Positions 2,312 to 61,030 of a DNA stretch of 64,000 bases are shown one piece after another (positions within the stretch are counted from its first letter, which is position 1; every line of letters starts with the position of its first letter). The position numbers and the translations under genes were made by a program. Location: positions 3,075 through 67,074 of the forward strand of contig JBBINQ010000008.1 of NCBI GenBank assembly GCA_037443805.1, read 5' to 3'. Source of the DNA: a candidate division WOR-3 bacterium (GTDB lineage: Bacteria; Hydrothermota; Tepidihabitantia; SM23-42; JAOAFX01). The notes under the pieces are model-generated. The model had not been told where the DNA came from and searched no databases. It worked only from the letters and a program-made list of their open reading frames with translations.

Positions 2312-2370
2312 CTTGACAAAATCATTGTCCTCTTGTCATTGCGAGCCGAAGGCGAAGCAATCTCATCAGT

Positions 2371-3744: not shown

Positions 3745-3756
3745 TGAGCGATTACT

Positions 3757-5082: not shown

Positions 5083-5113
5083 TGCTTTTTTCTCAAGGTG
5101 GGTGGATAAAAAT

Positions 5114-5140
5114 TTCCTCCCCATTGATGGGGGAGGATTA
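5114..5140. repeat. Palindromic element TTCCTCCCC-ATTGAT-GGGGGAGGATTA (copy 1), followed by two degenerate half-copies at 5163-5183 and 5204-5224
   Basis: Near-identical copy at 46861-46887; stem CCTCCCC/GGGGAGG. Confidence 0.7.
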
Positions 5141-5245
5141 TTAAGGAGGAAATTATATACATACCAATTATCCCTCCCATCAAGGGCGGGAACAAAGAAA
5201 GAAAATATCCTCTCATCAAGGGATGGGAAGTTCAGGGTCATTACT

Positions 5246-46795: not shown

Positions 46796-46843
46796 CTGGA
46801 GTAAGGAGTATGTAGTATGTAGTTTGTATCCAGTATCATTTCC
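46796..46843. repeat. Heptad minisatellite copy A (AGTAAGG AGTATGT AGTATGT AGTTTGT ATCCAGT ATC...)
   Basis: 7-nt period; the same ordered degeneration as copies B and C. Confidence 0.7.
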
Positions 46844-46860
46844 TGAGTCCTCCCCACTTT

Positions 46861-46887
46861 TTCCTCCCCCTTAATGGGGGAGGATTA
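46861..46887. repeat. Palindromic element TTCCTCCCCC-TTAAT-GGGGGAGGATTA (copy 2)
   Basis: 8-bp stem; near-identical to 5114-5140. Confidence 0.7.
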
Positions 46888-46987
46888 AGGTGGGGGTGTT
46901 GCACATTGTGTCTACTAAAGTTTCTATTCCATTTTCACATATGTTAGGAATAGAGGCTTTAGCCTCGTTAAATCCTTCATAAGCATA

Positions 46988-47067
46988 TTCCAGTGCATGG
47001 CACTAACTTCCAGACGAAGTCTCACTTCCAGTGCTTCGCACTCCTTTCCAGTTCCGCAGGAACTCAC
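46988..47067. repeat. Array of four tandem ~20-nt units, each TTCCAG followed by a short hairpin with a different stem sequence
   Basis: Units begin at 46988, 47008, 47026 and 47046; stems AGTGC/GCACT, AGAC/GTCT, AGTGC/GCACT, AGTTCC/GGAACT with 3-nt loops. Confidence 0.6.
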
Positions 47068-47069
47068 AT

Positions 47070-47100
47070 CTTTATCCAGTATCGAGTATCAAGCATCATT
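47070..47100. repeat. Heptad minisatellite tail copy A2 (ATCCAGT ATCGAGT ATCAAGC ATCATTC) abutting the promoter
   Basis: Same ATCMAGT heptads as the 3' part of copies B and C. Confidence 0.6.
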
Positions 47101-47104
47101 CCCT

Positions 47105-47132
47105 ATTGACAAAGTTCAATATATATATAGAA
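47105..47132 (+). promoter_or_regulatory. sigma70-like promoter (TTGACA-16-TAGAAT) for the 47154 ORF
   Basis: TTGACA 47105-47110; AGGAGG RBS before ATG 47154. Confidence 0.45.
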
Positions 47133-47153
47133 TATTATATATAGGAGGTTGCT

Positions 47154-47354
47154 ATGGCGAATGAGAAGACCAATGAATCATTGTTTGCAAATATGGATGA
47201 AGCAGCACAGAAGGCAAAAGAAGAATTTGACCAGATGCCTGAGGATGTGAAAAAAACTTTTGCTGTCTGGATGAGAAAATGGTATCTTAAAGCAGGTTAT
47301 CGCAGATTAGGAAGGATTGCGGTTTCCTATGCAAAATCTTTGCAAAAAACATAG
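47154..47354 (+). CDS. Hypothetical small protein
   Basis: 66 aa; strong RBS AGGAGG; no recognisable domain. Confidence 0.45.
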   Translation: MANEKTNESLFANMDEAAQKAKEEFDQMPEDVKKTFAVWMRKWYLKAGYRRLGRIAVSYAKSLQKT

Positions 47355-47387
47355 TTAAATCATTGCGCGAGATAAACAGGGGGCAGA

Positions 47388-47939
47388 ATGATATTTGATG
47401 ATATGGAAGATACTGAAAAAGGACCATTTTGTAAGCCTTTTGGACAGTTATTCTATGATAATCTTGAAAAGATGCCCTCATTTCAAATTGTTGAAGCCTA
47501 CCTTGCCTGCCTCTTAGATGCACAGGACAAAATTCAGAAAGCAATCAATATTCTTGAAGGTGCCTTAAAAAAAGGGACTGAGAGGTTAAAACAGATAGAT
47601 AATCCAGCAGAACTCCAGTTCTTTTTTGGCAAGATTACTGGAGCGCGGGGTGAAATTGAAAAGGAGATTGAGCGACTCTCCCATCATCGCAGGGAACTTG
47701 AACATTTAATCTCAGAATATTCTGAAAAAGGATTGTTCAATGTGCCATTAAAAGATTTTATGATTACCTTTGATGCTGAGTATCCAATAAAGGTTGAAAA
47801 GAAACACATTGATAGTGATGAGTGTTATATCACTGAAATAAAGGCTCCAGACCTGGTGGGTTGTGCTGGTTTTGAACATTTAAATAGAGTAATGACCGGT
47901 TATATCTTAAAAAAGCTCCTTGCAAAAAAGGAAGGATGA
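47388..47939 (+). CDS. Hypothetical protein
   Basis: 183 aa; coding-like composition; no recognisable domain. Confidence 0.5.
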   Translation: MIFDDMEDTEKGPFCKPFGQLFYDNLEKMPSFQIVEAYLACLLDAQDKIQKAINILEGALKKGTERLKQIDNPAELQFFFGKITGARGEIEKEIERLSHHRRELEHLISEYSEKGLFNVPLKDFMITFDAEYPIKVEKKHIDSDECYITEIKAPDLVGCAGFEHLNRVMTGYILKKLLAKKEG

Positions 47940-47940
47940 G

Positions 47941-48060
47941 AGGAATAGGAGGAAGGAGTAGGGAGTAGGTAGTAGGGAGTAGGTAGTATGTAGTAAGTAG
48001 TAGGTAGTAAGTAGTATGTAGTTTGTATCAAGAATCAAGTATCGAGTATCCGGCATCCAG
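47941..48060. repeat. Heptad minisatellite copy B (AGTAGGT AGTAGGG AGTAGGT AGTATGT AGTAAGT ... AGTTTGT ATCAAGA ATCAAGT ATCGAGT ATCCGGC ATCCAGT)
   Basis: About 17 consecutive 7-nt units; + strand C-free for ~90-115 nt. Confidence 0.8.
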
Positions 48061-48061
48061 T

Positions 48062-48101
48062 TTACATAATTCCACTTACGATTACATAATTCCACTTACG
48101 A
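48062..48101. repeat. Perfect tandem duplication of 20-bp unit TTACATAATTCCACTTACGA; second copy ends in palindrome CCACTT-ACG-AAGTGG
   Basis: 48062-48081 is identical to 48082-48101. Confidence 0.85.
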
Positions 48102-48142
48102 AGTGGGAAAGAAGGTATTCTATTCTTATTGCTATGGTATAT

Positions 48143-48170
48143 TGACATTGGGGGAAATCTGAATATAATT
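48143..48170 (+). promoter_or_regulatory. sigma70-like promoter (TTGACA-16-TATAAT) for secG
   Basis: TTGACA 48143-48148, TATAAT 48165-48170; AAGGAG RBS at 48189. Confidence 0.55.
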
Positions 48171-48199
48171 GGTTCAGAAATTAATTTAAGGAGATATAA

Positions 48200-48544
48200 A
48201 TGTACGGAATAATCTTTGCTTTACATGTGCTTATTTGCGTTCTATTGATTATTGTAGTCCTGCTCCAGCAGACCAGAGGTGCGGGTATGTCCAGTGTCTT
48301 TGGTGGTGGTGGAGGTAGTGATTCATTATTTGGTGGTAAGGGCGCTACGCCTTTCTTTATAAAACTCACTTCAGGACTGGCGATCGGTTTCTTCCTTACC
48401 TCTTTGTTTCTGGTCCTCCTATCCCGAAGACCAATGCCAAAGAGCGCTGTGGAAAGAGGACTTGAAACAGAAGTGCCTGCACCGATTAGCCCTGTGCCTG
48501 AAGGGCAGGCGCCAGTAATTCCTGAAGAACCAGGGAGTAAATAA
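48200..48544 (+). CDS. secG: Preprotein translocase subunit SecG
   Basis: Two TM helices flanking a Gly-rich loop (FGGGGGSDSLFGGKG). Confidence 0.8.
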   Translation: MYGIIFALHVLICVLLIIVVLLQQTRGAGMSSVFGGGGGSDSLFGGKGATPFFIKLTSGLAIGFFLTSLFLVLLSRRPMPKSAVERGLETEVPAPISPVPEGQAPVIPEEPGSK

Positions 48545-48858
48545 TGTTTGCGGTAATTAGAACCAATAATCACCAATATGTAGTATCAAAGGGTGAAAAG
48601 ATAATTGTTCCAGCAATTCTCGGCGAATCAGGAAAGGAAGTTGAATTTAACAAGGTTTTGATGATAAAGGATGAAAATAATGTGCTGGTGGGAAAACCTT
48701 TTATTGAAGGTGCTTCAGTTAAAGGTGTGATAAAAAAGACTGGTAAGATGCCCAAGGTGATCGTCTTTAAATTTATTCGGCGTGAGAATTATCGTCGTAA
48801 AAAAGGGCATCGCCAGTCATTTACAGAAGTGGAAATCACTGAGATTACCAAAAAATGA
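48544..48858 (+). CDS. rplU: 50S ribosomal protein L21
   Basis: MFAVIRTNNHQYVVSKGEKI... canonical L21. Confidence 0.93.
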   Translation: MFAVIRTNNHQYVVSKGEKIIVPAILGESGKEVEFNKVLMIKDENNVLVGKPFIEGASVKGVIKKTGKMPKVIVFKFIRRENYRRKKGHRQSFTEVEITEITKK

Positions 48859-48879
48859 GATATAAAAACAGGAGGTAGC

Positions 48880-49140
48880 ATGGCACACAAAAAAGGAACT
48901 GGTTCAGCAAAGAATGGACGGGATTCAGAAGGCAAAAGGCTCGGTGTGAAAAGGTTTGACGGACAGGTTGTCAATACAGGCACAATAATTATCAGACAGC
49001 GTGGCACACGTATCCATCCTGGTATGAATACTGGTATGGGTAAGGATTATACAATTTATGCCCTTGCCCGTGGTCAGGTGAAGTTTGGCTGGACAAAGGG
49101 TGGTAAAAGGACTGTTTCTGTAATCCCTTCAAATAATTGA
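48880..49140 (+). CDS. rpmA: 50S ribosomal protein L27
   Basis: [29 protein letters not shown]... canonical L27. Confidence 0.95.
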
Positions 49141-49195
49141 GGTTATTTACTACATCTTTTTTCCATATTTATATTCTTCTCCCCTATCCCTTATA

Positions 49196-49223
49196 TTGAC
49201 TTTTTCTAAACTTTATTTATAAT
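49196..49223 (+). promoter_or_regulatory. sigma70-like promoter (TTGACT-16-TATAAT) 5 nt upstream of the metG ATG (leaderless)
   Basis: TTGACT 49196-49201, TATAAT 49218-49223, ATG 49229. Confidence 0.5.
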
Positions 49224-49228
49224 TGTTT

Positions 49229-51199
49229 ATGAAGATACTTGTAACGAGTGCATTGCCTTATGCCAATGGCGATATTCACTTAGGACATCTTGCTGGTGCA
49301 TATCTGCCAGCAGATATCTATGTGCGTTATCAGCGGCTCAAAGGCAGGGATGTAATACATATCTGTGGCACAGATGAACATGGTGTGCCCATAACTGTTC
49401 TTGCAGACCAGCAGAAAAAGACGCCGCAGGAAATTGTAGATTATTATTATGAATCTATAAAAAAATCGTTTATTGATTTTGGTATAAGCTTTGATAATTT
49501 TTCCCGCACAACAAGACCATTGCACTATCGTCTTGCCCAGGATTTCTTTCTGCAGATATATAATAAAGGTCTTATATATGTAAAAGAGACCGAACAATTT
49601 TATTGTCCCAAATGTGCAAGGTTTTTACCTGACCGTTATGTGGTTGGTAAATGTCCGCGCTGTGGTATTGATGGTGCAAAAGGTGACCAGTGTGAATCCT
49701 GTGGTAGATGGCTTGAACCGTTCCAGTTGATTGAACCAAGATGTTTGGTCTGTGGTGAAAAACCAGTAAGGCAGAAGACCAAACACTGGTATTTTAAACT
49801 TTCCCAGTTTCAAAAGCAACTCAGTGAGTGGATTGAGACAAAGAAAAACTGGCGCGAGACAGTTCTCACCTTTGTAAAAGGATGGCTCAAAGAAGGGCTT
49901 GAAGACCGCCCCATAACCAGGGATATGGCATGGGGTGTGCCTGTGCCCCTTGATGAAGCAAAGGGAAAGGTATTGTATGTATGGTTTGATGCACCGATCG
50001 GCTATATCTCATCAACTATGGAATGGGCAATAAATAAAGGTGAACCTGACCTGTGGAAGGAATACTGGCTAAATCCAGACACAAAGTTAGTCCATTTTAT
50101 TGGCAAAGACAATATTGTATTTCACGCCCTTATCTGGCCAGCAATGCTGACGGCTTATGGTAATTATGTCCTGCCCGCTGAGATTCCCGCAAATCAGTTT
50201 TTGAACTTAGAAGGTGAAAAACTTTCTACTTCCCGTGGCTATGCGATATGGCTTCCTGAATATCTCAAAGAATTTCCTGCTGATTCTTTGAGGTATGCCC
50301 TTACGCGCAATCTTCCGGAGACAAGAGACTCAGATTTTACCTGGCGTGATTTTCAAGCCTGGCATAATAATGAACTGGCAGATATCCTTGGCAATTATAT
50401 CAATCGCACATTAACCTTTATTGAAAAGTATTATAATTCAAATGTTCCATCTGCCTCTGCATTTACGGAAAATGAAAATAGAATTCTTGATATACTACAC
50501 AATGCGCCTAAGATAATCGGTGAAAAGATTGAAAATTTTGAATTTAAAAGCGCACTCCAGGAAGTGATGAAGATTGCCCAGGAAGGAAATAAATATTTTG
50601 ATAAAGAAGCACCCTGGATTGCAAGAAAGACCAGTCCTTTGATCTGCGAACGGACAATGTATATCTGTATGAAGATGGTAACTGCACTTGCAGTATTAAT
50701 GGAACCATTCTTACCTTTTACTGCCCAGAAATTGAAAAAGATGATAAATTTTCAGGAACAAACCTGGGACAATATTGGCACGCCCATTGTTCCGCAAACC
50801 ATAAATAAGGCTGAAATTCTTTTCAAAAAATTTGAGGATGAGGTTATTGAAGTCCAGATTGCAAAGTTAAAACAGAAAGAGATAAGTATTGAGGATTTTA
50901 ATAAAATTGAATTACGCACAGCAAAGATTCTTTCAGCACAGATGGTTCAAGGAAGCAATCATCTGGTGGTCTGTGAGATTGAAGTAGGCGAGATAAAGAA
51001 ACAGATTGTAGCAGGCATTGGTAAACAATACAGACCAGAAGAACTTGTAGGAAAGACAATCATTATTGTAAATAATTTAAAACCCGTTTCGTTAAAGGGC
51101 GTATTGTCCCAGGGAATGCTTTTGGCAGCACAGGATAAGAATGGGCTTGTGCTTTTAACCACTGATAAACCCATCTCATCAGGTGCAGTTGTGAAGTGA
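49229..51199 (+). CDS. metG: Methionyl-tRNA synthetase
   Basis: HLGH (LGHLAG), KMSKS-type LSTSRG, zinc knuckles CPxC...CxxC, C-terminal tRNA-binding domain. The track start is TTG at 49223; ATG at 49229 preferred. Confidence 0.93.
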   Translation: MKILVTSALPYANGDIHLGHLAGAYLPADIYVRYQRLKGRDVIHICGTDEHGVPITVLADQQKKTPQEIVDYYYESIKKSFIDFGISFDNFSRTTRPLHYRLAQDFFLQIYNKGLIYVKETEQFYCPKCARFLPDRYVVGKCPRCGIDGAKGDQCESCGRWLEPFQLIEPRCLVCGEKPVRQKTKHWYFKLSQFQKQLSEWIETKKNWRETVLTFVKGWLKEGLEDRPITRDMAWGVPVPLDEAKGKVLYVWFDAPIGYISSTMEWAINKGEPDLWKEYWLNPDTKLVHFIGKDNIVFHALIWPAMLTAYGNYVLPAEIPANQFLNLEGEKLSTSRGYAIWLPEYLKEFPADSLRYALTRNLPETRDSDFTWRDFQAWHNNELADILGNYINRTLTFIEKYYNSNVPSASAFTENENRILDILHNAPKIIGEKIENFEFKSALQEVMKIAQEGNKYFDKEAPWIARKTSPLICERTMYICMKMVTALAVLMEPFLPFTAQKLKKMINFQEQTWDNIGTPIVPQTINKAEILFKKFEDEVIEVQIAKLKQKEISIEDFNKIELRTAKILSAQMVQGSNHLVVCEIEVGEIKKQIVAGIGKQYRPEELVGKTIIIVNNLKPVSLKGVLSQGMLLAAQDKNGLVLLTTDKPISSGAVVK

Positions 51200-51951
51200 T
51201 TGATACCCATTGCCATCTAATTGACCCCCAGTTTAATAAGGACTTAGAAGAAGTAATCAAGCGTGCCTGGTCTGCAGGAATAAAATATATTATCAATGTT
51301 GGTTATGACAGAGAGACCAGTATCCGGGCATTGAGAATGAATGAAAAATATGACTGGATTCTACCCGCAGTTGGAATCCATCCTAATGAGAGTGCAGATG
51401 AGTCAGTTGCACAGATGGCAGAGATTGATGCACTATGCGATAATAAAAAAGTCGTTGCGATTGGTGAAACCGGCTTGGATTTTTATCGCCATTATTACCC
51501 CAAAGAAGCACAGCAAGCACTCTTTGAAAAGCATATCAATATTGCCCGTAAATACAATCTGCCATTAATCATCCATACAAGGATGTCCATTGATGAGGCA
51601 ATAAAAATTTTAGTTAAAGAAAATTATCACAAAGGACTATTCCACTGCTTTAGTGGAACCATTGAACAGGCAAAAAAGGTTATGGATCTTGGATACTATT
51701 TGGGATTCGGTGGAGTCTTAACATTTTCCAAGAATATGCGTGAGGTCTTTCAATATGTGCCACTTGATTTTATAGTGTTTGAAACAGATGCACCATTCCT
51801 TGCACCAGCCAACCACCGTGGACATAGAAATGAACCTGTTTTTATTTTTGAAACCCTGAATGTAGCAGCATCAATAAAAAGCTTGAGTGCGGATGAAGTT
51901 GAGACAATTACAGATAAGAATGCCCGTAAACTTTTTAGTTTGAAAGAATAA
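51196..51951 (+). CDS. tatD: TatD-family metal-dependent hydrolase
   Basis: GTG start; IDTHCHL, GETGLDF, HCFSG motifs. Confidence 0.88.
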   Translation: MIDTHCHLIDPQFNKDLEEVIKRAWSAGIKYIINVGYDRETSIRALRMNEKYDWILPAVGIHPNESADESVAQMAEIDALCDNKKVVAIGETGLDFYRHYYPKEAQQALFEKHINIARKYNLPLIIHTRMSIDEAIKILVKENYHKGLFHCFSGTIEQAKKVMDLGYYLGFGGVLTFSKNMREVFQYVPLDFIVFETDAPFLAPANHRGHRNEPVFIFETLNVAASIKSLSADEVETITDKNARKLFSLKE

Positions 51952-51966
51952 ATATTTAACACAAGA

Positions 51967-52737
51967 ATGCCCGGAAAAAAGTTAGGACAGCATTTTTTGA
52001 ACAATATCTCTATAGTAAAAAAAATTATTAAATTTGCCCACATAGAAAATGAACCGGTCCTTGAGATTGGTGCAGGAAAAGGAATATTGACACGGGAGAT
52101 TGCAAAAAAAGCAAAGATTGTCTATGCCATAGAGATTGACCCTCAATATGCAGATATACTTGCAAAAAAGAATATTCCCAATACCGTAATAATAAATACA
52201 GATTTTCTATCACTTGACTTGAATGATTATAAAGATTGTATTATTGTGGGCAATATTCCGTATTATATAACGACCAGAATTATTGAAAAATTGGTCCAGG
52301 AACGGAATAAATTCTTACATGCGGTCCTGACAGTCCAGAAAGAATATGGAGAGCGGCTTCTAACAAAGCCCGGCACTACAAAATACAGTTCAATCACCTG
52401 CTATGTTAACTATTATTTCAATGTCGCAAAAGGTTTTAATATTTCACCAGGATATTTTACACCACCACCAAAGGTGAGTTCAATGGTGATTGGATTATAC
52501 CACAGAGAACCACTGTTTTTGTTAAATAATGAACAGAAATTTTTTGAATTTATTAACGGCATATTTCGCTACCGTCGCAAGACCCTGAAGAACGCCCTGA
52601 TTAATTATCTTGGTTCTTTACCTGCTCTTACTGATAAAGAAATTCTCAGAAAAAGGCCTGAACAATTAGGATTAAACGAATTTTTCCAATTATATGAAAA
52701 TATAAAAGAAGATATTCTGCTGAATAAACAAGAATGA
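51967..52737 (+). CDS. rsmA: 16S rRNA (adenine1518/1519-N6)-dimethyltransferase
   Basis: LGQHFL, EIGAGKG, GNIPY motifs. Confidence 0.9.
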   Translation: MPGKKLGQHFLNNISIVKKIIKFAHIENEPVLEIGAGKGILTREIAKKAKIVYAIEIDPQYADILAKKNIPNTVIINTDFLSLDLNDYKDCIIVGNIPYYITTRIIEKLVQERNKFLHAVLTVQKEYGERLLTKPGTTKYSSITCYVNYYFNVAKGFNISPGYFTPPPKVSSMVIGLYHREPLFLLNNEQKFFEFINGIFRYRRKTLKNALINYLGSLPALTDKEILRKRPEQLGLNEFFQLYENIKEDILLNKQE

Positions 52738-53780
52738 AGACAAAGGTTTATATCAAAGAAGGCACAAATCTGAAAGATTCAATCAGTGAACTATTTGAAG
52801 CATTCGGATTAAATGATTTAAAATATAAACGGGTATTTGTGAAACCGAATATGTTGCGCATTGCCCATCCTGAAGAGTGTGTCATTACTGACCCGCAATT
52901 GATTAAATGGACAGTGGACTATCTATTAAAAAATTCAGCCAATGTAATGGTCGGTGACAATCCTATTCCGCAGCCACTCAATGAGATTGAAGTTGCCCGT
53001 CAATGCGGATTTTTTCAGGCGAGTCAAGGATGTTTTAAAAATATTGGCCGCTATGTGCAGAAAATAAGATTAAAACATAAGAGCGTAAAAGAGGTCTATA
53101 TTTCAAGGGATATACTGGACGCAGATATTGTGATATCCTTACCAAAATTCAAGACCCATGAATTGACCATACTGAGCATTGCAATAAAGAATCACTTTGG
53201 TCTTATTCCCGGCGGGATGAAACCCCATTTACATGCGCAATGCACTTCACTTGATGATTTTTGCAAATTATTATTAGAACTGTATAATCTAAAAAGACCA
53301 GCGTTGATTATTGTTGATGCCCTGAATATTCGTGATGCAAATCATCGGTTATTCAAACTGAACAAGGTCATTGCCAGTAATGACCCCTGGGCAGTAGAGT
53401 ATGTGTGTTCACTTATGGCGAATTTAAATCCTGAATATCATCCTTTATTGAAGATTGGTTTGAAACAAGAATTATTTGACCCAAATAACATTGAAATCAT
53501 CGGCACATTAGAGCCGCTCAAAGATTTTTCCCTGCCACCTGGATTGTTTTTGAGAAATATATTCTCGGGTATTGGTAGTCGCATATTTGCAAAAGTTCAG
53601 GACCTCAGGGTAACATATATTGACCATCTGCTCTGTAATAGATGCCGTGCCTGTGAAAATGTCTGCCCGACCCGTGCAATCAGTAATTTTAATATTAATA
53701 CCAGAAGTTGTATAAAATGCTATTGTTGTTTTGAAGTCTGCCCTGCCGGTGCAATAAAGAAAAGGCTGAGGATTATATAA
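52734..53780 (+). CDS. DUF362-domain protein with C-terminal 2x[4Fe-4S] ferredoxin motifs
   Basis: CNRCRACENVCP and CIKCYCCFEVCP clusters. Confidence 0.75.
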   Translation: MKTKVYIKEGTNLKDSISELFEAFGLNDLKYKRVFVKPNMLRIAHPEECVITDPQLIKWTVDYLLKNSANVMVGDNPIPQPLNEIEVARQCGFFQASQGCFKNIGRYVQKIRLKHKSVKEVYISRDILDADIVISLPKFKTHELTILSIAIKNHFGLIPGGMKPHLHAQCTSLDDFCKLLLELYNLKRPALIIVDALNIRDANHRLFKLNKVIASNDPWAVEYVCSLMANLNPEYHPLLKIGLKQELFDPNNIEIIGTLEPLKDFSLPPGLFLRNIFSGIGSRIFAKVQDLRVTYIDHLLCNRCRACENVCPTRAISNFNINTRSCIKCYCCFEVCPAGAIKKRLRII

Positions 53781-53783
53781 CAC

Positions 53784-54665
53784 TCAATATTGGAATATTT
53801 TCATCTCATTGTCTTTAATATAGCACCAGGACATTGCCTGCGTATTATTCACACATAGTATTCTTCCTTTTCTGTCTATACCAATTATGCCAGCACGACA
53901 CTTATTCCTGGTCGCATAATCAATCGCCAGTTTGCCTGCTACAGAAGCAGAATATTTTGTTAGAAGTGAAACAGTGTGATAGGCAAGGAATGTTTTCATA
54001 ATCATTTCACCGTGTCCAGTAGTAGATACGCCACCATAACGATTTGCATATGTCCCTGCACCGATGATCGGTGTATCACCGACCCTGCCTGGCAGGTGCA
54101 ATGATATTCCGCCGGTTGAGGTGCCTGCAGTTATCTTACCATCTTTATCCATCGCCACAACGCCAACTGTTTCATACAATTCTTTTAATATTTGCAATTT
54201 AGGAAAATAATCGCCTTTTAATTTCTTTTTTGCAATGAGCCACATCTTCTCTTTTTCTTTTGTTTTGGGATTATGGTATTTGATGCCATTAAGACGGGCA
54301 AAACGGAGTGCACCTTCTCCGCATAATAATAGATGGTCGGTCTTTTCCATTATCAGACGCGCAATCTGAATTGGATAACGCACATTTTTGATTGCAGCCA
54401 CTGCTCCGAACCTGCCATCAGCAGTCATTATTGATGCATCCATCTCAACTTCACCAGTTAGACTCAATGTTGAACCAGTTCCGGCATTGAAAATTGTAGT
54501 ATCCTCTAAGACCATTATCGCCTTTTCCACAGCATCAAGGCTTGAACCACCCTGTTTCAAAATTTCATAACCCACATTTACTGCCTCTTTTAAACCCTGG
54601 GCACGACGGTATGGAAAGTTAATGCCGCCTGCCCCGCCATTGGCAATGATTACAAGATTTTTCAT
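53784..54665 (-). CDS. iaaA: Isoaspartyl peptidase / L-asparaginase (Ntn hydrolase, plant-type)
   Basis: GVVAMDKDGKITAGTSTGG with the autoproteolytic Thr; GAGxYA motif. Confidence 0.85.
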   Translation of the reverse strand: MKNLVIIANGGAGGINFPYRRAQGLKEAVNVGYEILKQGGSSLDAVEKAIMVLEDTTIFNAGTGSTLSLTGEVEMDASIMTADGRFGAVAAIKNVRYPIQIARLIMEKTDHLLLCGEGALRFARLNGIKYHNPKTKEKEKMWLIAKKKLKGDYFPKLQILKELYETVGVVAMDKDGKITAGTSTGGISLHLPGRVGDTPIIGAGTYANRYGGVSTTGHGEMIMKTFLAYHTVSLLTKYSASVAGKLAIDYATRNKCRAGIIGIDRKGRILCVNNTQAMSWCYIKDNEMKIFQY

Positions 54666-56722
54666 TTCTGCCTCGCTATCTTTCCTATTACGCTGAAACT
54701 TTTATCTTTTACAAGAATAAAATATATTCCTGCACCTACATCTTTGTGATTATTGTCTTTCCCATCCCAGAATATTTTTTTATTAACAATTGAAGAGGGC
54801 TCAAATTTCCTGATGAGCCGACCCGCAATAGAATAGATATAGACGGTCGGCATCACATTATCAGGAAGGTCAAGAACAATCTCACAGTCTTTCTGGAATG
54901 GATTCGGTACTGAATAGGGAATGGCAAAATTTGTTACATTGACCTTTACAAATTCTGACAGGTCGCTCTGATTTCCATAAAAATCTTCGGCATAAAGCGC
55001 ATAATAATATTCTCCTTTTAATTTATTGAATATATATAGTGTAGTATCACAATAATTATTACGAACATATCTATTAGAGATGAGTTCATATAATTTTATA
55101 TCATCAATATAAACACCGCCATTATTAACACTTCCATTAGAACGGTAATAAATTTTTAATGGCTCATTCCCTTCAGGCAGAATAAGGCGACAATGCTGCC
55201 AGGTTCCAGACCTACCATAATATACATATTTTTTTGCACCATATTCAATAATCAGGGAGTCAGCCATATCTTCAGTATTATAAAACAGATAAAAATCGAG
55301 CAGGGCTAAATTGTCTATCTTCAAATTCGTTCTCGTGATCAATGAATTATTGAGATTATTACTATTCCCTGAGAAGAAAGAGCCTGCACCATTATGGCTG
55401 ATATTTTTAACCAGTGAAAATCCATTGAAGAGCCATAAACTTGAATCCTCACACGGGTCATCAAATAGTAATAGAGTATCGGTCAATTCAATCACATTAT
55501 AGACAACCGGGCTAAGGTCAAATGAGCGGTTCCAGAATAGTGTGAAGTCATTATCTTTTCCCATACCACTCACTGAAACTATGGGACAGGTAGGTCTTAT
55601 ATCGTCCTGTCCATAGAACCAGTTAAGAAAATTTGCCCAACCCGATTCATTGTAGTCTAATAGCAGATAAATGTTTATTAAATTTTTAAATTCAATATAA
55701 CGGTCAGGAAAAAATGTCGTTATTCCGGTGAGCCGTGAAAGTTCAGCACCCCATGATGCAGTGGCAATGATGGTCTGGTTGTAAATATTATACAGATCCT
55801 GGTACTCTTTTTTTGTATTATAATCCTTTAGCAAACGCAGAAAATCACCAAGGTCAATGTAATCATCCTCAGTTTCTGGATTCGGGTCAGTAAGGGATAT
55901 AGTCTGGACCTGAGCCCTTAAATCTTTTATGCCTGAATCAGGAGGATTCTGCATAATTTTTTCAAGATTCTTCAGCGCATTTTTCAAATCAATTAGATTC
56001 TCAAGATTTATTGCTGAGATTGCTGATTCAATGGTTGTCGTATAATAATCTCTGCATCTATTAACAATCTCTTTTACCAGTTCATTCTCATTTATATCAG
56101 GGTCTTGTTTGAAGATATAAAAAATGGATTCATAGGGAAATCCACTCAATGGCCAGACAGTCTGTGGTCCAAGGCAGAATTTTGCATAGTCTTTTATCTC
56201 ATAGGCAATCTCAATCTGCTGCATATTGCAGGCATCAAAACCAATGATGTTTAGATGCTTTTTTGTGGCATCATAAAAAGTCTTTAATGCCCGATTCAGG
56301 TCTCCATTGGCAATGCTCATCTCTGTACCGGCAGACCAATCACTTCCAAAAGTGCGATGTGGTGCTAATGTCCAGCCTGTGCCATGGTCCCAGAGAATAA
56401 GTAGATATTTTTTGGCAGGAAAATACATTACACTCCACTGGAGAAAATCACTGAGTGTTTGCCAGTCACACATATCAATCGTGCCTAAATTGGCTAAATT
56501 ATAAAGTGTATCCTTTGCTACATAAAAGCGGTTTGCTCCAATATAAGGTTTATCAACCTGAGCAATGATGGCGAGTTCATCATTTGAGCCAATGGCTTTC
56601 ATTTCAATAAGGTCTGAGTCAGCCAGTGCACTGAGAGAGTTGTCTGCCGCCATATATACCATCACGGTCCATTCACGGCAGAAAAGGGTTAAAGGAATGA
56701 ACAGGAGAATAAGAAAACGCAC
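54662..56722 (-). CDS. Clostripain-like (peptidase C11) cysteine protease with T9SS C-terminal sorting domain
   Basis: Signal peptide; LLILWDHGTGW (catalytic His) and IGFDACNM (catalytic Cys); C-terminus ...GAGIYFILVKDKSFSVIGKIARQK. Confidence 0.75.
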   Translation of the reverse strand: MRFLILLFIPLTLFCREWTVMVYMAADNSLSALADSDLIEMKAIGSNDELAIIAQVDKPYIGANRFYVAKDTLYNLANLGTIDMCDWQTLSDFLQWSVMYFPAKKYLLILWDHGTGWTLAPHRTFGSDWSAGTEMSIANGDLNRALKTFYDATKKHLNIIGFDACNMQQIEIAYEIKDYAKFCLGPQTVWPLSGFPYESIFYIFKQDPDINENELVKEIVNRCRDYYTTTIESAISAINLENLIDLKNALKNLEKIMQNPPDSGIKDLRAQVQTISLTDPNPETEDDYIDLGDFLRLLKDYNTKKEYQDLYNIYNQTIIATASWGAELSRLTGITTFFPDRYIEFKNLINIYLLLDYNESGWANFLNWFYGQDDIRPTCPIVSVSGMGKDNDFTLFWNRSFDLSPVVYNVIELTDTLLLFDDPCEDSSLWLFNGFSLVKNISHNGAGSFFSGNSNNLNNSLITRTNLKIDNLALLDFYLFYNTEDMADSLIIEYGAKKYVYYGRSGTWQHCRLILPEGNEPLKIYYRSNGSVNNGGVYIDDIKLYELISNRYVRNNYCDTTLYIFNKLKGEYYYALYAEDFYGNQSDLSEFVKVNVTNFAIPYSVPNPFQKDCEIVLDLPDNVMPTVYIYSIAGRLIRKFEPSSIVNKKIFWDGKDNNHKDVGAGIYFILVKDKSFSVIGKIARQK

Positions 56723-57006
56723 AGCAAATTCTATTGAATTTTTGGACTATGTCAATATAACCATTCTGCTAATCGTAATTCGTTATACGGTTGCGAAAAG
56801 CGTTTCGTGAATCGTCAAGAGTCTATGGTTATATACACAAATAACCATACCCTTAACCGAAACGGGCATCGTTACCATAGCCTCTTACCCATTTCCCTTA
56901 ACCATAAACCATACCGGCATCCACGCCCTATATAATTAAAATACCTAAAAGTCCAAAACTTGTCCTGATGGATATCAGGATACCTAAATGCCAAAAGGGA
57001 AACGAT

Positions 57007-57047
57007 CTCCCTCAGTCCCCCTTTACCAAAGGGGGAGTGAGGGGGAT
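57007..57047. repeat. Long near-perfect inverted repeat CTCCCTCAGTCCCCCTTT-ACC-AAAGGGGGAGTGAGGGGGA (related to the CCTCCCC/GGGGAGG element)
   Basis: ~18-bp arms, one mismatch and one bulge; 15 bp upstream of the lysA promoter -35. Confidence 0.7.
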
Positions 57048-57061
57048 TTTAAAAATATTAC

Positions 57062-57089
57062 TTGACTTTTTTTGAAAAATATATATAAT
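57062..57089 (+). promoter_or_regulatory. sigma70-like promoter (TTGACT-16-TATAAT) for the lysA leader
   Basis: TTGACT 57062-57067, TATAAT 57084-57089. Confidence 0.6.
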
Positions 57090-57095
57090 GAGCAC

Positions 57096-57164
57096 ATGCT
57101 AAAATATTTTAAGAGATACTGGATGAAGAAGCATGTCCTAAGGATGGGCTTTTCGTTCCCATGA
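57096..57164 (+). CDS. Candidate leaderless 22-codon leader peptide (MLKYFKRYWMKKHVLRMGFSFP) of a transcription attenuator
   Basis: ATG 6 nt after the -10; four Lys codons including tandem AAG AAG. Codons 16-19 contain GGATGGGCTT, a near copy of the terminator's right arm. The stop lies 20 nt before the terminator stem. Confidence 0.3.
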   Translation: MLKYFKRYWMKKHVLRMGFSFP

Positions 57165-57184
57165 TAGAGCGTTTTATGGACGAT

Positions 57185-57212
57185 AAGCCCACCAGCAGGT
57201 GGGCTTTTTTAT
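57185..57212 (+). terminator. Intrinsic terminator / attenuator hairpin (AAGCCCACC-AGCA-GGTGGGCTT, then TTTTTT) within the lysA 5' leader
   Basis: 9-bp stem plus T-run, 33 nt upstream of lysA ATG 57245 and its GAGGAGG RBS. Confidence 0.75.
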
Positions 57213-57244
57213 TGCCATTTTTTTGATAGATGAGAGGAGGTATT

Positions 57245-58465
57245 ATGCAGGATAGCCTAAAAACATTGCGCAGGTATCTTAATAAAGAAACGGTTGAAAC
57301 ACCTTGCTATGTGTATGACCGAATAAGGATAATAAAAAATATTGAAATCTTGAAGCAGCATTTTTTGAAAATTGCCAAACTCTTTTTTGCAGTAAAGGCG
57401 AACACCAATATCGCTATATTAAAATTGATAAAAAGCCAGGGTATTGGTGCTGAGGTAGTCTCACCCGGTGAAATTTTTGTCTGCCTTAAAGCGGGTTTCA
57501 ATCCAGATGAAATTCTTTATAATAATGTCGCACGCAAGATAGAAGAAATTCTATATGCACTTGATAATGGTGTAATTTATTTTAATTTTGAAAGCATTGA
57601 CCAGGCAATCCTCCTGGAAAAAGCAGCAAAGATGCGCGCCAGAAAAATAAATATCTTTGCCCGTATAAACCCTGGCATCTTTTCCAAAACCCATCCGCAT
57701 CTTTCTACTGGCTCTAAATTCAGCAAATTCGGGATGACAATACAAGAGATAAAACAGAGTCTTTCATTAATAAAAAGATTCAGATATGCGAAATTGGTCG
57801 GCATCCACTGCCATATTGGTTCTCAAATACTATCTCCAGAACCATTTGTCAAGGCGAGCAAAAAGGTTGGGCAAACAATAAAATTACTTAGAAGGAATGG
57901 CTTTGATATTAACTATGTAAATTTCGGTGGTGGGTTTGGTGTTCCTTATCTGCCCCAGGAAAGACCTCTTGATTTTAAACCCATTATTGACTGTTATGGC
58001 TCAATAAAGGATAAGTATGAGGTAGAAATAATGCTGGAGCCAGGAAGATTCTTTGTCGCAAATGCCGGCTATATTCTTAGCCGTTTGATTGATAAAAAAA
58101 CAAGGAATCATATACCAGTATATATGATTGATGCAGGTATGACCGAGAATCCCAGGCCTGCGCTCTATGATGCGTATCACCATATTGAGCCATTATGTAT
58201 TAACTCAAACAAACGGATAAAAGTGCGCGTTACAGGTCCGCTCTGCGAAAATGCAGATGAGTTTGGATACTATTCTCTGCCCAATCTGAAACTTGGCGAG
58301 TATGTTCTAATTCATAATTCTGGCGCCTATACAAGGACTATGGCATCAACCTATAATGGAAGACCTTTGCCCGCAGAATATCTGATTGATAATGGTATAA
58401 AATTAATAAAAAGAAAACAACCTTTAAAAGGATTGATTGAAGATGAACAATATCAGAGTTTTTAA
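57245..58465 (+). CDS. lysA: Diaminopimelate decarboxylase (PLP-dependent, Orn/DAP/Arg decarboxylase family)
   Basis: FAVKANTN PLP-lysine motif, GGGFGVPY, EPGR; followed by lysC and ddh. Confidence 0.85.
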   Translation: MQDSLKTLRRYLNKETVETPCYVYDRIRIIKNIEILKQHFLKIAKLFFAVKANTNIAILKLIKSQGIGAEVVSPGEIFVCLKAGFNPDEILYNNVARKIEEILYALDNGVIYFNFESIDQAILLEKAAKMRARKINIFARINPGIFSKTHPHLSTGSKFSKFGMTIQEIKQSLSLIKRFRYAKLVGIHCHIGSQILSPEPFVKASKKVGQTIKLLRRNGFDINYVNFGGGFGVPYLPQERPLDFKPIIDCYGSIKDKYEVEIMLEPGRFFVANAGYILSRLIDKKTRNHIPVYMIDAGMTENPRPALYDAYHHIEPLCINSNKRIKVRVTGPLCENADEFGYYSLPNLKLGEYVLIHNSGAYTRTMASTYNGRPLPAEYLIDNGIKLIKRKQPLKGLIEDEQYQSF

Positions 58466-59699
58466 AGTTGGTGGCTCAGTCCTTTCTGAACCAGAAGATT
58501 TTTTAAAGATTGCACAGTGTATCTTGCAATTTCAGGATTCAAAGGTCTGTCTGGTTACTTCAGCAATAAAAGGGCAGACCGACGAATTAATTAAGACCTA
58601 TACAAAGGCAATCCCCCAGCCTGATTTTTACAATTTTGAAAAATTTGTAGGTATGGGCGAGCTTCAATCTGCTTTAATTTTTGAATCCGCATTCAAATAT
58701 TTAGGAAAGGATGCAAAGGCAATATTACCGGATAGACCAGAATGGCCTATCCACATCTCATTGAAATCCAAAGCCCGTCTCAGCCAGTATAAAATAAATG
58801 AAAAAAGGGACTTCTCAGTTCTTTCAAAATCAAAAATAATTACCCGGAAATTTATTCTTCCTTTGCTCAGAAAAAATACGATTCTCATTATACCCGGATT
58901 CATTGCCCGTGATGAAAAAGGGAATACATTAACCCTGGGCAGGGGTGGAAGTGATATTTCTGCGCTATTAATGGCAGAATTGTTAAAGTCATCAGAATTA
59001 ATTTTGATAAAGGATGTAGGAGGTATCCTGAGTATGGACCCGAAAATTGTAACAGATACAAAAATGATAAAAAGACTCACCTGGGCAGAACTTGGCGCAC
59101 TTGCTGCGTCCGGTGCTCAGGTATTGAATCCGATATCATTAAAACATCGGAAGAATTTGCCAAAACTGCGGGTGATCTCCAATAATGGGACGACCACCAA
59201 AAGGGATGGAACTGAAATCTTATTTGATAAAACAATCTCCATCACTGCTTCTAATAAAAATTATGGTGTGCTCACCTTTATTGGTGAAAAAATTCCTGAG
59301 ACACCAGGAATTCTGAGTCAGATTGCCTCAATCCTTGCCCAGAAAAAGATTGCAATAAATTCAATCACGATTTCGGACAATCTTCTCGCAATATATGTTT
59401 TACAAAAGAAGGCTGAAATCGCTTATAAATTATTAGCACCATTAATTTCTAAATCAAAGAACCTGAAGGCATTAAATTTGAAAAAGGATATTGCGAAGAT
59501 TGTTATCCGCAGTTTGCATTTTATCAATGAACCAGGAGCAATAAAAAATATTGTTGCACCTATTGCCCGCGAAAAGATAAATATCTGGGAGGTTCTGACC
59601 GTGCATACTGATATTATGATCTTTGTTGAATCCCAGGATTGTGCACGGGCATATAAGATAATCAACGGATTATTCAAAAAGGAGAAGAATGGAAAATAG
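58437..59699 (+). CDS. lysC: Aspartate kinase with C-terminal ACT domains
   Basis: VFKVGGSVL, VTSAIKGQTDEL, LTLGRGGSDISAL, AELGALAASGAQVLNP. Confidence 0.85.
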   Translation: MKMNNIRVFKVGGSVLSEPEDFLKIAQCILQFQDSKVCLVTSAIKGQTDELIKTYTKAIPQPDFYNFEKFVGMGELQSALIFESAFKYLGKDAKAILPDRPEWPIHISLKSKARLSQYKINEKRDFSVLSKSKIITRKFILPLLRKNTILIIPGFIARDEKGNTLTLGRGGSDISALLMAELLKSSELILIKDVGGILSMDPKIVTDTKMIKRLTWAELGALAASGAQVLNPISLKHRKNLPKLRVISNNGTTTKRDGTEILFDKTISITASNKNYGVLTFIGEKIPETPGILSQIASILAQKKIAINSITISDNLLAIYVLQKKAEIAYKLLAPLISKSKNLKALNLKKDIAKIVIRSLHFINEPGAIKNIVAPIAREKINIWEVLTVHTDIMIFVESQDCARAYKIINGLFKKEKNGK

Positions 59700-60720
59700 T
59701 AAAATAAAAGTTGCAATTGTTGGTTATGGAAATCTTGGTCGGGGCGTAAAAGAAGCGATCAATAAAAATAGCGATATGGAACTTACAGAGATTATAACGC
59801 GCAGACCCGATTCAATAAAAAAATCAGTTAAAAATATTCCTGTTTTTAGTATGGATAAATTTGAAGTCCTTGCTGATGTAGCCATCCTCTGCGGTGGTTC
59901 AAAAGAAGATATTTTCGGAACCGAGAATAATACACTTGAAAAGATTAGAATAAATAATCCATATACACATGGTCAGGGGCTCTATTTTGCCCAATTTTTT
60001 AACACGGTGGATAGTTTTGATACACACAAAAGGATTCCTGATTATTATCGCCAGATAGGTCGGATAGCGAAATTGAACCGGCATACATCAATCATCTCTG
60101 CAGGCTGGGACCCCGGCACTTTTTCTCTGGAAAGGGTTATGGCTGATGCATTTATGCCTGAAGGCAGAAATTATACATTCTGGGGACCAGGAATAAGTCA
60201 GGGACATTCTGATGCAGTGCGCCAGGTGCCTGGAGTTCTGGATGCAAGGTCATATACCATACCAATAAAGAGTGCCTTAAAAAAGGTCAGGCAGGGCAAG
60301 AATCCTGTCTTAAGACCAGGCCAGATGCACAAGCGTGTCGTCTATGTGGTTGCCCACGACGATGCAGACAAAAATGAGATTGCTGATAAAATAAAAAAGA
60401 TGCCCAACTATTTTGCTGACTATGATACAAAAGTAATCTTTGTTTCTCAGGATAAATTGAACAAACAGCATAAAGGCTTTCCCCATTGTGGTTCAGTAAT
60501 ATTCTCTGGGAACACAGGAAATCATAATAAGGCATTCATTGAATACAATTGTTTATGGGATAGCAACCCTGAAGCAACGGCGAACATCCTTGTTGCCTGT
60601 GCCCGTGCCTGCTACCGATTAAATAAGGAAAAGAAATATGGCGCCCTAACAATGCTGGAAATCCCACCGTTATACTATTCAATCCACAATAAAGAAGAAC
60701 TGCTTGAGAACTATATGTAG
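59689..60720 (+). CDS. ddh: meso-Diaminopimelate D-dehydrogenase
   Basis: VAIVGYGNLGRGV, SAGWDPGTFSL, FWGPGISQGHSDA closely resemble Corynebacterium Ddh. Confidence 0.88.
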   Translation: MENSKIKVAIVGYGNLGRGVKEAINKNSDMELTEIITRRPDSIKKSVKNIPVFSMDKFEVLADVAILCGGSKEDIFGTENNTLEKIRINNPYTHGQGLYFAQFFNTVDSFDTHKRIPDYYRQIGRIAKLNRHTSIISAGWDPGTFSLERVMADAFMPEGRNYTFWGPGISQGHSDAVRQVPGVLDARSYTIPIKSALKKVRQGKNPVLRPGQMHKRVVYVVAHDDADKNEIADKIKKMPNYFADYDTKVIFVSQDKLNKQHKGFPHCGSVIFSGNTGNHNKAFIEYNCLWDSNPEATANILVACARACYRLNKEKKYGALTMLEIPPLYYSIHNKEELLENYM

Positions 60721-60977
60721 TAGGCAGTGGTTAGTAGGTAGTATGTAGTAGGTAGTAAGTAGGGAATAATGAAACCAAACAGATGCAGTATCGCTTCGCT
60801 TGCAGTATCATCTATGATTGGAAGGGTAATAATGGGTTATCAAGGGGAATCAGGGGATGGGAGGATATGTGGATGTGAAGTTGAGTGTTTGCGTGGATAT
60901 GAAGATGGGATGATAGTAAGGAGTAAGTAGTAGGTAGTTTGTATCAAGTATCCAGTATCAAGTATCCAGCGTCCAGT
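60718..60977. repeat. Heptad minisatellite copy C (AGTAGGC AGTGGTT AGTAGGT AGTATGT AGTAGGT AGTAAGT ... purine/T-rich spacer ... AGTAAGG AGTAAGT AGTAGGT AGTTTGT ATCAAGT ATCCAGT ATCAAGT ATCCAGC GTCCAGT)
   Basis: Starts within the ddh stop codon; strongly C-poor + strand; ends 25 bp before the -35 at 61003. Confidence 0.8.
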
Positions 60978-61002
60978 TGAAAATGGTCTGTTTTTTAATA
61001 TA

Positions 61003-61030
61003 TTGACAAACAGGTGATTATAAATATAAT
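61003..61030 (+). promoter_or_regulatory. sigma70-like promoter (TTGACA-16-TATAAT) 5 nt upstream of ATG 61036 (leaderless)
   Basis: TTGACA 61003-61008, TATAAT 61025-61030. Confidence 0.5.

Follow-up and report, generated by a model that had tools for sequence, protein, structure and literature searches.

Tandem arrays of heptanucleotides have been known in cyanobacteria since 1990, when Mazel et al. reportedly described the short tandemly repeated repetitive (STRR) sequences. These are generally said to consist of tandem 7-nt units that lie between genes, to concatenate several heptamers in one tract, to be dispersed and highly variable between close strains, and to have no known function. 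Elhai et al. are said to have reported in 2008 that small dispersed repeats are nested in the cyanobacterial heptamer arrays. In most of these features the STRRs resemble three intergenic tracts found in a window of 64,000 nt from a candidate division WOR-3 bacterium (assembly GCA_037443805.1, contig JBBINQ010000008.1, positions 3,075 to 67,074, forward strand). The tracts differ from STRRs in phylum and in heptamers, and in WOR-3 an ordered composite of two arrays is itself the dispersed unit. While cyanobacterial genomes contain many dispersed arrays, only three loci are found in the 64-kb window. We consider the tracts to be, probably, a lineage-specific compound heptanucleotide minisatellite family, which evolves within permissive gaps through slippage together with ectopic recombination. 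They belong to the known class of heptanucleotide long simple sequence repeats (SSRs), STRRs and TAACTGA repeats.

Direct repeats of the heptamer TAACTGA are described from Beggiatoaceae, Cyanobacteria and Bacteroidetes (MacGregor 2015, PMC4679880). As the WOR-3 tracts, they are intergenic, carry stop codons in three forward frames and in some cases overlap the upstream stop codon (PMC4679880). Long Bacteroidetes arrays consist of mixed heptamers and are missing in close relatives whose gene neighbourhood is the same (PMC4679880). For the arrays of Cyanobacteria and Bacteroidetes it was reported that indels come in steps of 7 nt, that contigs end in the repeats and that a role in rearrangements is suspected (PMC4679880). 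However, the sets in 'Maribeggiatoa' comprise mostly 2-6 copies just upstream of start codons, suggesting translational control (PMC4679880), whereas the WOR-3 tracts lie upstream of promoters and right past stop codons, have another motif and form a two-array composite. According to the survey of Mrazek, Guo & Shah (2007), in so far as it is summarised in PMC4679880, 7-nt units are the commonest long SSRs among those with 5-11-nt units, prokaryotic heptanucleotide SSRs are ascribed to polymerase slippage, and they are kept out of coding DNA, 7 not being divisible by 3. As cited there, that survey gives statistics of single-motif SSRs, while the WOR-3 case is a two-array composite duplicated between loci.

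In Haemophilus influenzae the 7-bp repeat ATCTTTC of hmw1A/hmw2A is a contingency locus in the promoter region, and its unit number varies among isolates (PMC8262952, PMC12721329). The hmw1A repeat is perfect, lies between two transcription starts within the 5' untranslated region (UTR) of the active promoter and tunes an adhesin gene, whereas the WOR-3 tracts are heterogeneous and lie upstream of the -35 element before housekeeping genes. For a Nostoc promoter it was claimed that deletion of heptamer repeats altered the effects of regulators (bioRxiv 10.1101/2022.06.06.494920). The BIMEs and REPs of E. coli and the REPINs of Pseudomonas (PMC3116915) are also comparable, as they are reordered short intergenic modules at operon boundaries which vary between strains; the likeness to such mosaic repeats is seen at one of the WOR-3 loci, where mini-hairpins are interspersed with heptad units. 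The core modules in WOR-3 are, in contrast, non-palindromic tandem heptads, and neither a RAYT-type gene nor evidence of transposition was found in the window. Despite the reports on Bacteroidetes and Beggiatoaceae since 2015, an agreed function or mechanism of spread of heptanucleotide arrays is lacking. The WOR-3 tracts add an uncultivated phylum to the record.

One composite is common to the three loci A (46796-47104), B (47940-48061) and C (60718-60977), which are all on the + strand. It consists of a left array (L) of (AGTADGT)n, a single junction unit (J) AGTTTGT and a right array (R) of (ATCNAGT)n, always in this order. An earlier note, made from the sequence alone, had proposed three copies with one ordered architecture, which is confirmed by direct reading, Tandem Repeats Finder (TRF), junction counts and homology of the copies. 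TRF reports period-7 arrays at 46807-46828, 47957-48022 (9.4 copies), 48025-48050, 60717-60762, 60914-60938 and 60941-60966. The junction 17-mer AGTTTGTATCMAGTATC is present at 46821, 48020 and 60936, each time on the + strand and with 0-1 mismatch, while 0.32 matches are expected in shuffles even with 3 mismatches allowed. For a 16-mer of the left array, 22 matches were counted where 0.25 would be expected, and 20 of the 22 lie inside the three loci. Copies B (48006-48062) and C (60922-60978) align over 57 nt at 89.5% identity, a stretch that spans left array, junction and right array, and copies A (46800-46837) and C (60915-60952) align over 38 nt at 92%. Judged from their sequences, the three copies are homologous and not due to independent convergence.

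The variation within the units is concentrated on one position each, position 5 of the L unit (G/A/T) and position 4 of the R unit (C/A/G), and the other positions are nearly invariant. A period-7 autocorrelation of at least 0.78 is confined to 47944-48039 within the 64 kb. The longest C-free run on the + strand of the window, 105 nt (47924-48028), lies at copy B, for which the earlier note had given a C-free stretch of about 90-115 nt; the runner-up has 64 nt. This long run is due to the heptads themselves being C-free. The L arrays contain 1-6 stop codons per forward frame and nearly none in the reverse frames. Every tract starts 0-40 nt past the stop codon that ends an upstream + strand gene, a feature missed by the earlier note; it is shared as strongly as the promoters. 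All three loci fall within 14 kb of the 64 kb, a clustering with p ~0.13 by our own calculation. As in arrays of the STRR type, the 7-nt units are arranged head to tail in at least 3 copies, the tracts are intergenic and non-coding, several heptamers occur per tract, and the length is polymorphic among strains, at least partly in unit steps.

Copy A is divided in two. Its first part (46796-46844, +) is an L-J-R with 38 nt at 92% to the second copy at locus C, made up of the L units AGTAAGG, AGTATGT and AGTATGT (46800-46820), the junction AGTTTGT (46821-46827) and the R unit ATCCAGT (46828-46834), followed by the end motif ATCATTTCCT. A filler of about 230 nt splits this one L-J-R, and the second part (47074-47104, +) continues with the R units ATCCAGT, ATCGAGT and ATCAAGC and an end motif ATCATTCCCT that adjoins the -35 element. 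The sequence ATCATTYCCT recurs at the right end of the copies at locus A in the window and in a related strain. Copy B (47940-48061, +) begins directly past the TGA stop codon of a gene for a 183-aa protein. It comprises a degenerate purine-rich 5' edge (47940-47956), nine L units (47957-48019), the junction AGTTTGT (48020-48026) and five R units (48027-48061), and 57 nt of it match the second copy at locus C at 89.5%. Locus C contains two copies. C1 (60718-60762, +) is an L array of six units; its first heptad overlaps the stop codon TAG of DAPDH (60718-60720), and its two 5' units, AGTAGGC and AGTGGTT, are degenerate. C2 (60915-60977, +) is a complete second L-J-R with the L units AGTAAGG, AGTAAGT and AGTAGGT (60915-60935), the junction AGTTTGT (60936-60942) and five R units (60943-60977).

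The most informative comparison is with a relative at 92-94% nt identity, the Logan sample SRR24079483 (contigs L124, L131 and L132 in our numbering of matching sequences). In this lineage tracts are present at all the same three loci. Since the sample was assembled independently, the tracts are no assembly artefact, an alternative which the earlier note had named and which is hereby ruled out; the contigs of the relative were reported identically from 2 samples. The tract-less relatives compared were L001-L003 (96-98%), L125 (87%), L126-L130 (75-77%) and, for alpha-2-macroglobulin (A2M), L133/L134 (86%). Tracts are absent at 87% in L125, at 75-77% in L126-L130 and in the 86% A2M relatives L133/L134. 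The comparative series is unusually clean, with the same three gaps at 98%, 96%, 93%, 87% and 76% identity, and shows additions in the space from a stop codon to an independent promoter, change in unit steps, shuffling of modules and coincidence with breakpoints.

A comparison of unit number between strains had been proposed in the earlier note. The number indeed differs, with a 7-nt indel at C and 22 nt at B. C1 of the relative (L124) has one heptad more, and the A/C-rich filler behind it is 36 nt longer, while the 5' part of copy B is 22 nt shorter in L131. Copy A of the relative is compact: AAGG is followed by AGTAAGT, AGTAGGT, AGTTTGT, ATCGAGT, ATCCAGT and ATCATTCCCT, which abuts the -35 element, and the 230-nt filler is missing. 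The second part of copy A in the window is orthologous to L131 51-75. The modules are also shuffled. A G-rich, C-poor companion module of 55 nt (60855-60909, +) and a 44-nt L-J-R are separated by 7 nt at locus C of the window (60855-60960), and both are found at locus A of the relative, the G-rich block with 96.4% identity (53/55 nt; L132 14753-14807) and the L-J-R, which is part of C2, with 97.7% (43/44 nt; L131 27-70). In the relative, contigs built from short reads stop within the tracts, and one contig of 951 nt is bounded by tracts on both sides; such tracts break short-read assemblies. No other heptad arrays were found in about 125 kb of other WOR-3 sequence. The junction 24-mer had zero matches in 185,579 species genomes, JGI metagenomes and viral contigs, and the G-rich module had in metagenome contigs a single chance match to unrelated GC-rich coding DNA. 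Look-ups of four proteins of the window by exact sequence gave no match.

The earlier note had placed a TTGACA -35 element in the same orientation 5-80 bp past each copy. These elements are seen, and the promoter-like sites score 11/12 at A, 12/12 at B and 12/12 at C. The last heptad is about 5 nt (A), 80 nt (B) and 25 nt (C) from the -35 element; every tract lies upstream of it, and none in the -35/-10 spacer or in the 5' UTR. The site of the gene pair for a 66-aa and the 183-aa protein (47106-47133, +) is kept in the tract-less relatives L126 and L129. The secG site (48142-48169, +) is kept in L126, L129 and L001-L003; in the latter three, which are identical in SecG, homology upstream of 48135-48138 is lost. 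The site before the tetratricopeptide repeat (TPR) gene, dksA and lspA (61003-61030, +) is kept base for base in the 87% relative L125, within 51 nt at 96%, with zero arrays of the L heptad (GTAGTAD in another register). In the relatives at 75-77% the -35 elements of the 66-aa gene and of secG follow the upstream stop codon after only 15-25 nt without a tract, and the tracts are therefore added DNA. The gap between the 183-aa gene and secG measures 77-131 nt in relatives against 260 nt in the window.

A functional tie between tracts and promoters, as suggested by the earlier note, was not borne out, since the promoters of secG, the TPR gene and the 66-aa gene are kept in tract-less relatives. 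As far as conservation among relatives can tell, the association is incidental and the sites belong to the downstream genes. For the same reason the promoter was rejected as a component of the repeat. Near-consensus promoters are found at ten places in the window, and only three have a tract, while 7 other strong promoters have none. The tracts do not fit promoter UP elements, which are A/T-rich tracts at about -40 to -60 conserved with the promoter; they are not kept with the promoters, and the distance from their end to the -35 element is 80 nt for B and 25 nt for C. Heptad tracts of this kind should not be annotated as promoter elements.

In the reading that we regard as probable, slippage at replication, or else unequal recombination, would alter the unit number. 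The composite would be copied between gaps by ectopic recombination or gene conversion, with the heptad arrays serving as homology, and the same process would keep the copies similar. The tracts would persist since the gap between stop codon and promoter tolerates extra DNA, and not because of a sequence-specific job; any effect on expression would act via spacing or read-through and not via the promoter core. In the register parse the edges of the arrays show more degenerate units than the centres, which is expected of arrays homogenised by slippage. The L-J-R is often joined to other small modules, such as the 55-nt G-rich block and the mini-hairpins.

Several observations weigh against a passive minisatellite. 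The one variable position per heptad could reflect constraint; a few mutational events amplified by slippage suffice to explain it. Two of the length differences, 22 nt and 36 nt, cannot be divided by 7 without remainder. Between strains and loci, paralogous copies resemble each other more closely than orthologous coding DNA does (92-94%), and this needs ongoing gene conversion or recent movement, or reflects selection. The tracts persist at the same three loci across 6-8% nt divergence, and neither strain has a copy that differs in its orientation relative to transcription or in its start next to the upstream stop codon. In addition, the view on copy number covers the 64-kb window and genome fragments, and the length changes were read from assembled strain contigs.

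We also looked for similar arrays in other phyla. A scan of species-representative genomes for (GTAGTAD)n with at least 3.5 units, in which the phyla were read from the record titles, gave such arrays in more than 120 places among the matches listed, mainly in Bacteroidota, Patescibacteria and Cyanobacteria, and among these matches also in Elusimicrobia, Omnitrophota, Cloacimonadota, Firmicutes and others. Usually such an array is part of a compound tract with several heptamers, or its own reverse complement comes after it. Cyanobacterial loci such as L025, L026, L033 and L105 have GTAGTAD arrays inside STRR-like compound tracts. The other arrays at GTAGTAD loci have periods of 7, 14 and 21 in 91, 46 and 22 cases, compared to 26 cases of period 8. 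At 120 loci of other phyla, the upstream gene runs in the direction of the TAG-rich strand 61 times against 27, a bias that is partly an artefact of the calling of open reading frames (ORFs), with p ~0.06 for left versus right (chi-square computed by hand); it is suggestive only. The wide taxonomic spread of the heptad is a lead on why the 7-nt period is favoured.

Several candidates were tried and rejected. RNA folding of B and C is no better than in shuffles (z = +0.17 and +0.74), and Rfam gave zero matches at the gathering score and in E-value mode only chance matches far below threshold; on these grounds a structured RNA was rejected, and so was the idea that the L and R arrays pair with each other. 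Only the non-heptadic filler of copy A is structured (z = -6.0). Coding, including a reverse-strand ORF at 47907-48095 and an ORF at 60769-60930, is excluded by the indels between the strains (7, 22 and 36 nt), as those whose length is not divisible by 3 break the frame. A dispersed signal like Chi or uptake sequences was rejected as well, because single heptads outside the tracts are neither enriched nor strand-skewed. Selection for stops in three frames is unsupported as a general rule of heptad arrays (62/90 stop-containing heptads against 61.2 in shuffles). An orientation of GTAGTAD arrays by replication strand was not supported either, as the arrays do not track local GC skew (66/115, p = 0.14). 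Iterons are direct repeats of about 17-22 bp with spacing between them, next to an origin or rep gene, to which a Rep or regulator protein binds. The suggestion of the earlier note that the tracts could be protein-binding iterons is unsupported in this strict sense, since they are contiguous 7-mers without a replication gene nearby; no rep gene and no plasmid or phage context was found within the 64-kb window.

A functional binding array in a wider sense is unlikely, too. A protein with a footprint of about 7 nt, e.g. of the OB-fold Csp/S1 type, would bind cooperatively to the heptad DNA or, in a read-through transcript, to unstructured C-poor RNA, and the array would act as insulator, mRNA-stability or translation element at operon boundaries. 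The single variable position in otherwise nearly invariant heptads, the constant orientation and post-stop position in both strains, the identity of paralogues exceeding that of the orthologous flanks, and a Shine-Dalgarno-like AAGGAGT unit conserved at the 5' edge of most copies fit such a role. Yet close relatives with the same genes and promoters manage without tracts, neither unit number nor module order is conserved, and only 3 gaps in 64 kb have a tract while 7 other strong promoters do without. Csp-type proteins, each binding one heptamer, were discussed for the TAACTGA repeats (PMC4679880), and the deletion of heptamer repeats in Nostoc is claimed to have changed regulator effects on a promoter (bioRxiv 10.1101/2022.06.06.494920); a candidate binding protein was however not identified here, and single-copy heptads are neither enriched nor strand-skewed. 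The co-orientation with the upstream gene in the 120 loci of other phyla (61 vs 27) points in the same direction as a binding array, but it is modest, partly artefactual and at p ~0.06, and stop-containing heptads are not favoured (62/90 vs 61.2 expected).

The earlier note had also named a genome-specific mobile or recombination scar. The tracts are lineage-specific and lie at recombination and synteny breakpoints, which fits this suggestion. A dedicated mobile element is a rival that we judge to be rather unlikely. According to it, a small non-autonomous element, consisting of the L-J-R with or without the G-rich block, would be moved in trans, by an enzyme encoded elsewhere, into the gaps between stop codon and promoter, by analogy to cyanobacterial small dispersed repeats or REPINs. 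The same ordered composite at three or more loci, the 44-nt copy at 98% and the 55-nt block at 96% at different loci in two strains, and the recurrent ATCATTYCCT at the right end of the locus A copies would agree with this. So would the short-read contigs of the relative ending inside tracts, which is expected of multi-copy sequence. The L-J-R has, however, neither terminal inverted repeats nor a hairpin (z = +0.17 and +0.74 for the folding of B and C), and its copies have ragged ends of degenerate units instead of sharp ones. There is no clear target-site duplication, and the ends are not defined by an empty site in any close relative. No transposase, integrase or RAYT-like gene was found within the 64-kb window, and the junction 24-mer is absent from the 185,579 species genomes, the JGI metagenomes and the viral contigs.

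More generally, it is quite improbable that the L-J-R with its G-rich block is not passive, and is either a new recombinogenic or mobile module of stop-to-promoter gaps or a protein-binding array in 7-nt steps that evolves concertedly. A module of the first kind would seed rearrangements, including the insertions of defence islands at the same site in conspecific strains. If either of the two active readings were true, the recurrence of (GTAGTAD)n in many phyla would be due to a shared mechanism and not to independent slippage. Contingency tracts, in which slippage would tune the adjacent promoter as in hmw1A of H. influenzae with its ATCTTTC repeat, are very improbable: unit number differs between close strains, which leaves the slipped-strand part of this suggestion from the earlier note standing, strong promoters follow the tracts at a distance of 5-80 nt and 7-bp SSRs do tune expression in H. 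influenzae (PMC8262952), but the tracts are upstream of the -35 element and outside of the -35/-10 spacer and the 5' UTR, the arrays are heterogeneous and mixed units imply a lower slippage rate than in perfect SSRs, the downstream genes are housekeeping genes or a conserved WOR-3 pair and not surface or restriction genes, and the promoters are conserved in relatives without tracts; modulation of the promoters is thus not supported.

The fillers between the heptad modules are of different kinds. The filler dividing copy A (46845-47073, +; z = -6.0 for the whole gap) contains a nested hairpin CCCCAC/CCTCCCCC...GGGGGAGG/GTGGGG (46852-46895, +), further on a stem (46918-46962, +) and then four mini-hairpins (46992-47064, +); its part 46933-46979 matches L132 at 91%. 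The mini-hairpins are consecutive and each has the form TTCC-AG...CT with a 3-nt loop, while the stems differ (AGTGC-atg-GCACT, AGAC-gaa-GTCT, AGTGC-ttc-GCACT, AGTTCC-gca-GGAACT). A similar mini-hairpin, CGTCC-gaa-GGACG, is found in the related strain at L131 8-26 beside its copy A. The hairpin CCTCCCC(C)-TTRAT-GGGGGAGG occurs twice in the window (28 nt, 93%), within the filler of copy A at 46860-46887 and at 5113-5140 between hsdS and hsdR of a type I restriction system; it is a second small dispersed repeat and possibly a terminator. Copy B is followed by a lineage-specific filler (48062-48134, +), which consists of an exact 20-nt tandem duplication of TTACATAATTCCACTTACGA (two copies, 48062-48101) and a small CCACTTACGAAGTGG hairpin. 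Homology with the conspecific strains begins only behind it, at 48135-48138. The filler between C1 and C2 (60763-60854, +) comprises an A/C-rich stretch, R-like remnants GCAGTATC...GCAGTATCATC and a stretch of G runs. GGGTTATCAAGGGGAATCAGGGGATGGG at 60834-60861 (+) matches by reading the canonical G-quadruplex motif, taken as four G runs of at least 3 with loops of at most 7 nt.

The tracts lie in an ordinary chromosomal context, with A2M, the 66-aa/183-aa pair, secG-rplU-rpmA-metG-tatD-ksgA, lysA-ask-DAPDH, TPR-dksA-lspA and nrdD; the best named relatives of the proteins encoded beside them belong to candidate division WOR-3. Downstream of the tracts are the housekeeping genes secG-rplU-rpmA and TPR-dksA-lspA and, at locus A, the conserved WOR-3 pair. 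The 66-aa and 183-aa ORFs (47154-47939, +) have no Pfam family. In the WOR-3 relatives examined they keep their order and directly precede secG-rplU-rpmA. Homologues of the 183-aa protein number 84, with 57-97% identity. That the two ORFs form a mobile cassette flanked by direct repeats was rejected, as the protein of 183 aa belongs to the conserved core of WOR-3, and the ancestral order 66aa-183aa-secG-rplU-rpmA contradicts it as well.

Two of the three tract loci are synteny breakpoints. The adjacency of A2M and the 66-aa gene is exclusive to this lineage among the relatives compared; elsewhere A2M is followed by a tricorn-like peptidase, and the 66-aa gene has a divergent asd before it. The conspecific strains, at 96-98% nt identity, cease to match the window exactly at the -35 element of secG, and a type III CRISPR Cas10/Cas6 or an N6/N4 DNA methyltransferase is encoded upstream of it (L001 1-2817; L002 1-2245). 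The site appears to be a hotspot for the insertion of defence genes.

Among the GTAGTAD arrays of other phyla two further arrangements were seen. At nine loci (L010, L022, L024, L032, L093, L103, L104, L111 and L119) the array is followed by a short spacer and the degenerate reverse complement CTACTAC/CTACTTAC... Such pairs, present in many Bacteroidota, in Patescibacteria and in others, give long hairpins built of heptads between genes. In several Firmicutes, (GTAGTAA)n is located directly 3' of a TTGACA...TATAAT-like promoter, i.e. at the extreme 5' end of the leader (L031 3644-3703, minus strand; L088 323-347; L118 5285-5351, minus; L091 673-718, minus; L014 125-149, minus). Hosts include Clostridium boliviensis, Ca. 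Galacturonibacter, Paenibacillus plantarum, Oscillospiraceae and Lachnospiraceae. For at least three of these loci (L031, L088 and L118) the downstream product starts with M(K/S)DLS(F/Y)TQEF... or MLQNLSIPQEF..., and this looks like a distinct recurrent use of the GTAGTAA heptad in the 5' UTR.

Some other features of the window and its relatives were observed. The type I restriction-modification system (806-8248, +) consists of hsdM, hsdS and hsdR, with a gene for a Schlafen/AlbA_2-domain protein between hsdM and hsdS, and is followed by a gene for a YgjP-like metallopeptidase. Upstream of lysA-ask-DAPDH (57062-57229, +) there are an 11/12 promoter and, behind it, a leader of about 130 nt with a clean terminator hairpin AAGCCCACCAGCAGGTGGGCTTTTTT at its end; the leader encodes a short ORF, MLKYFKRYWMKKHVLRMGFSFP, with several Lys codons. 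A search of this leader against Rfam gave only Trp/Phe leader matches far below threshold and no match to the lysine riboswitch. It may be a lysine-responsive attenuator. In GCA_037444665.1 (L003 1170-3154) metG is called as two ORFs of 220 and 441 aa, while it is a single gene of 656-658 aa in the window and in other strains; the split is either a frameshift or an assembly error.

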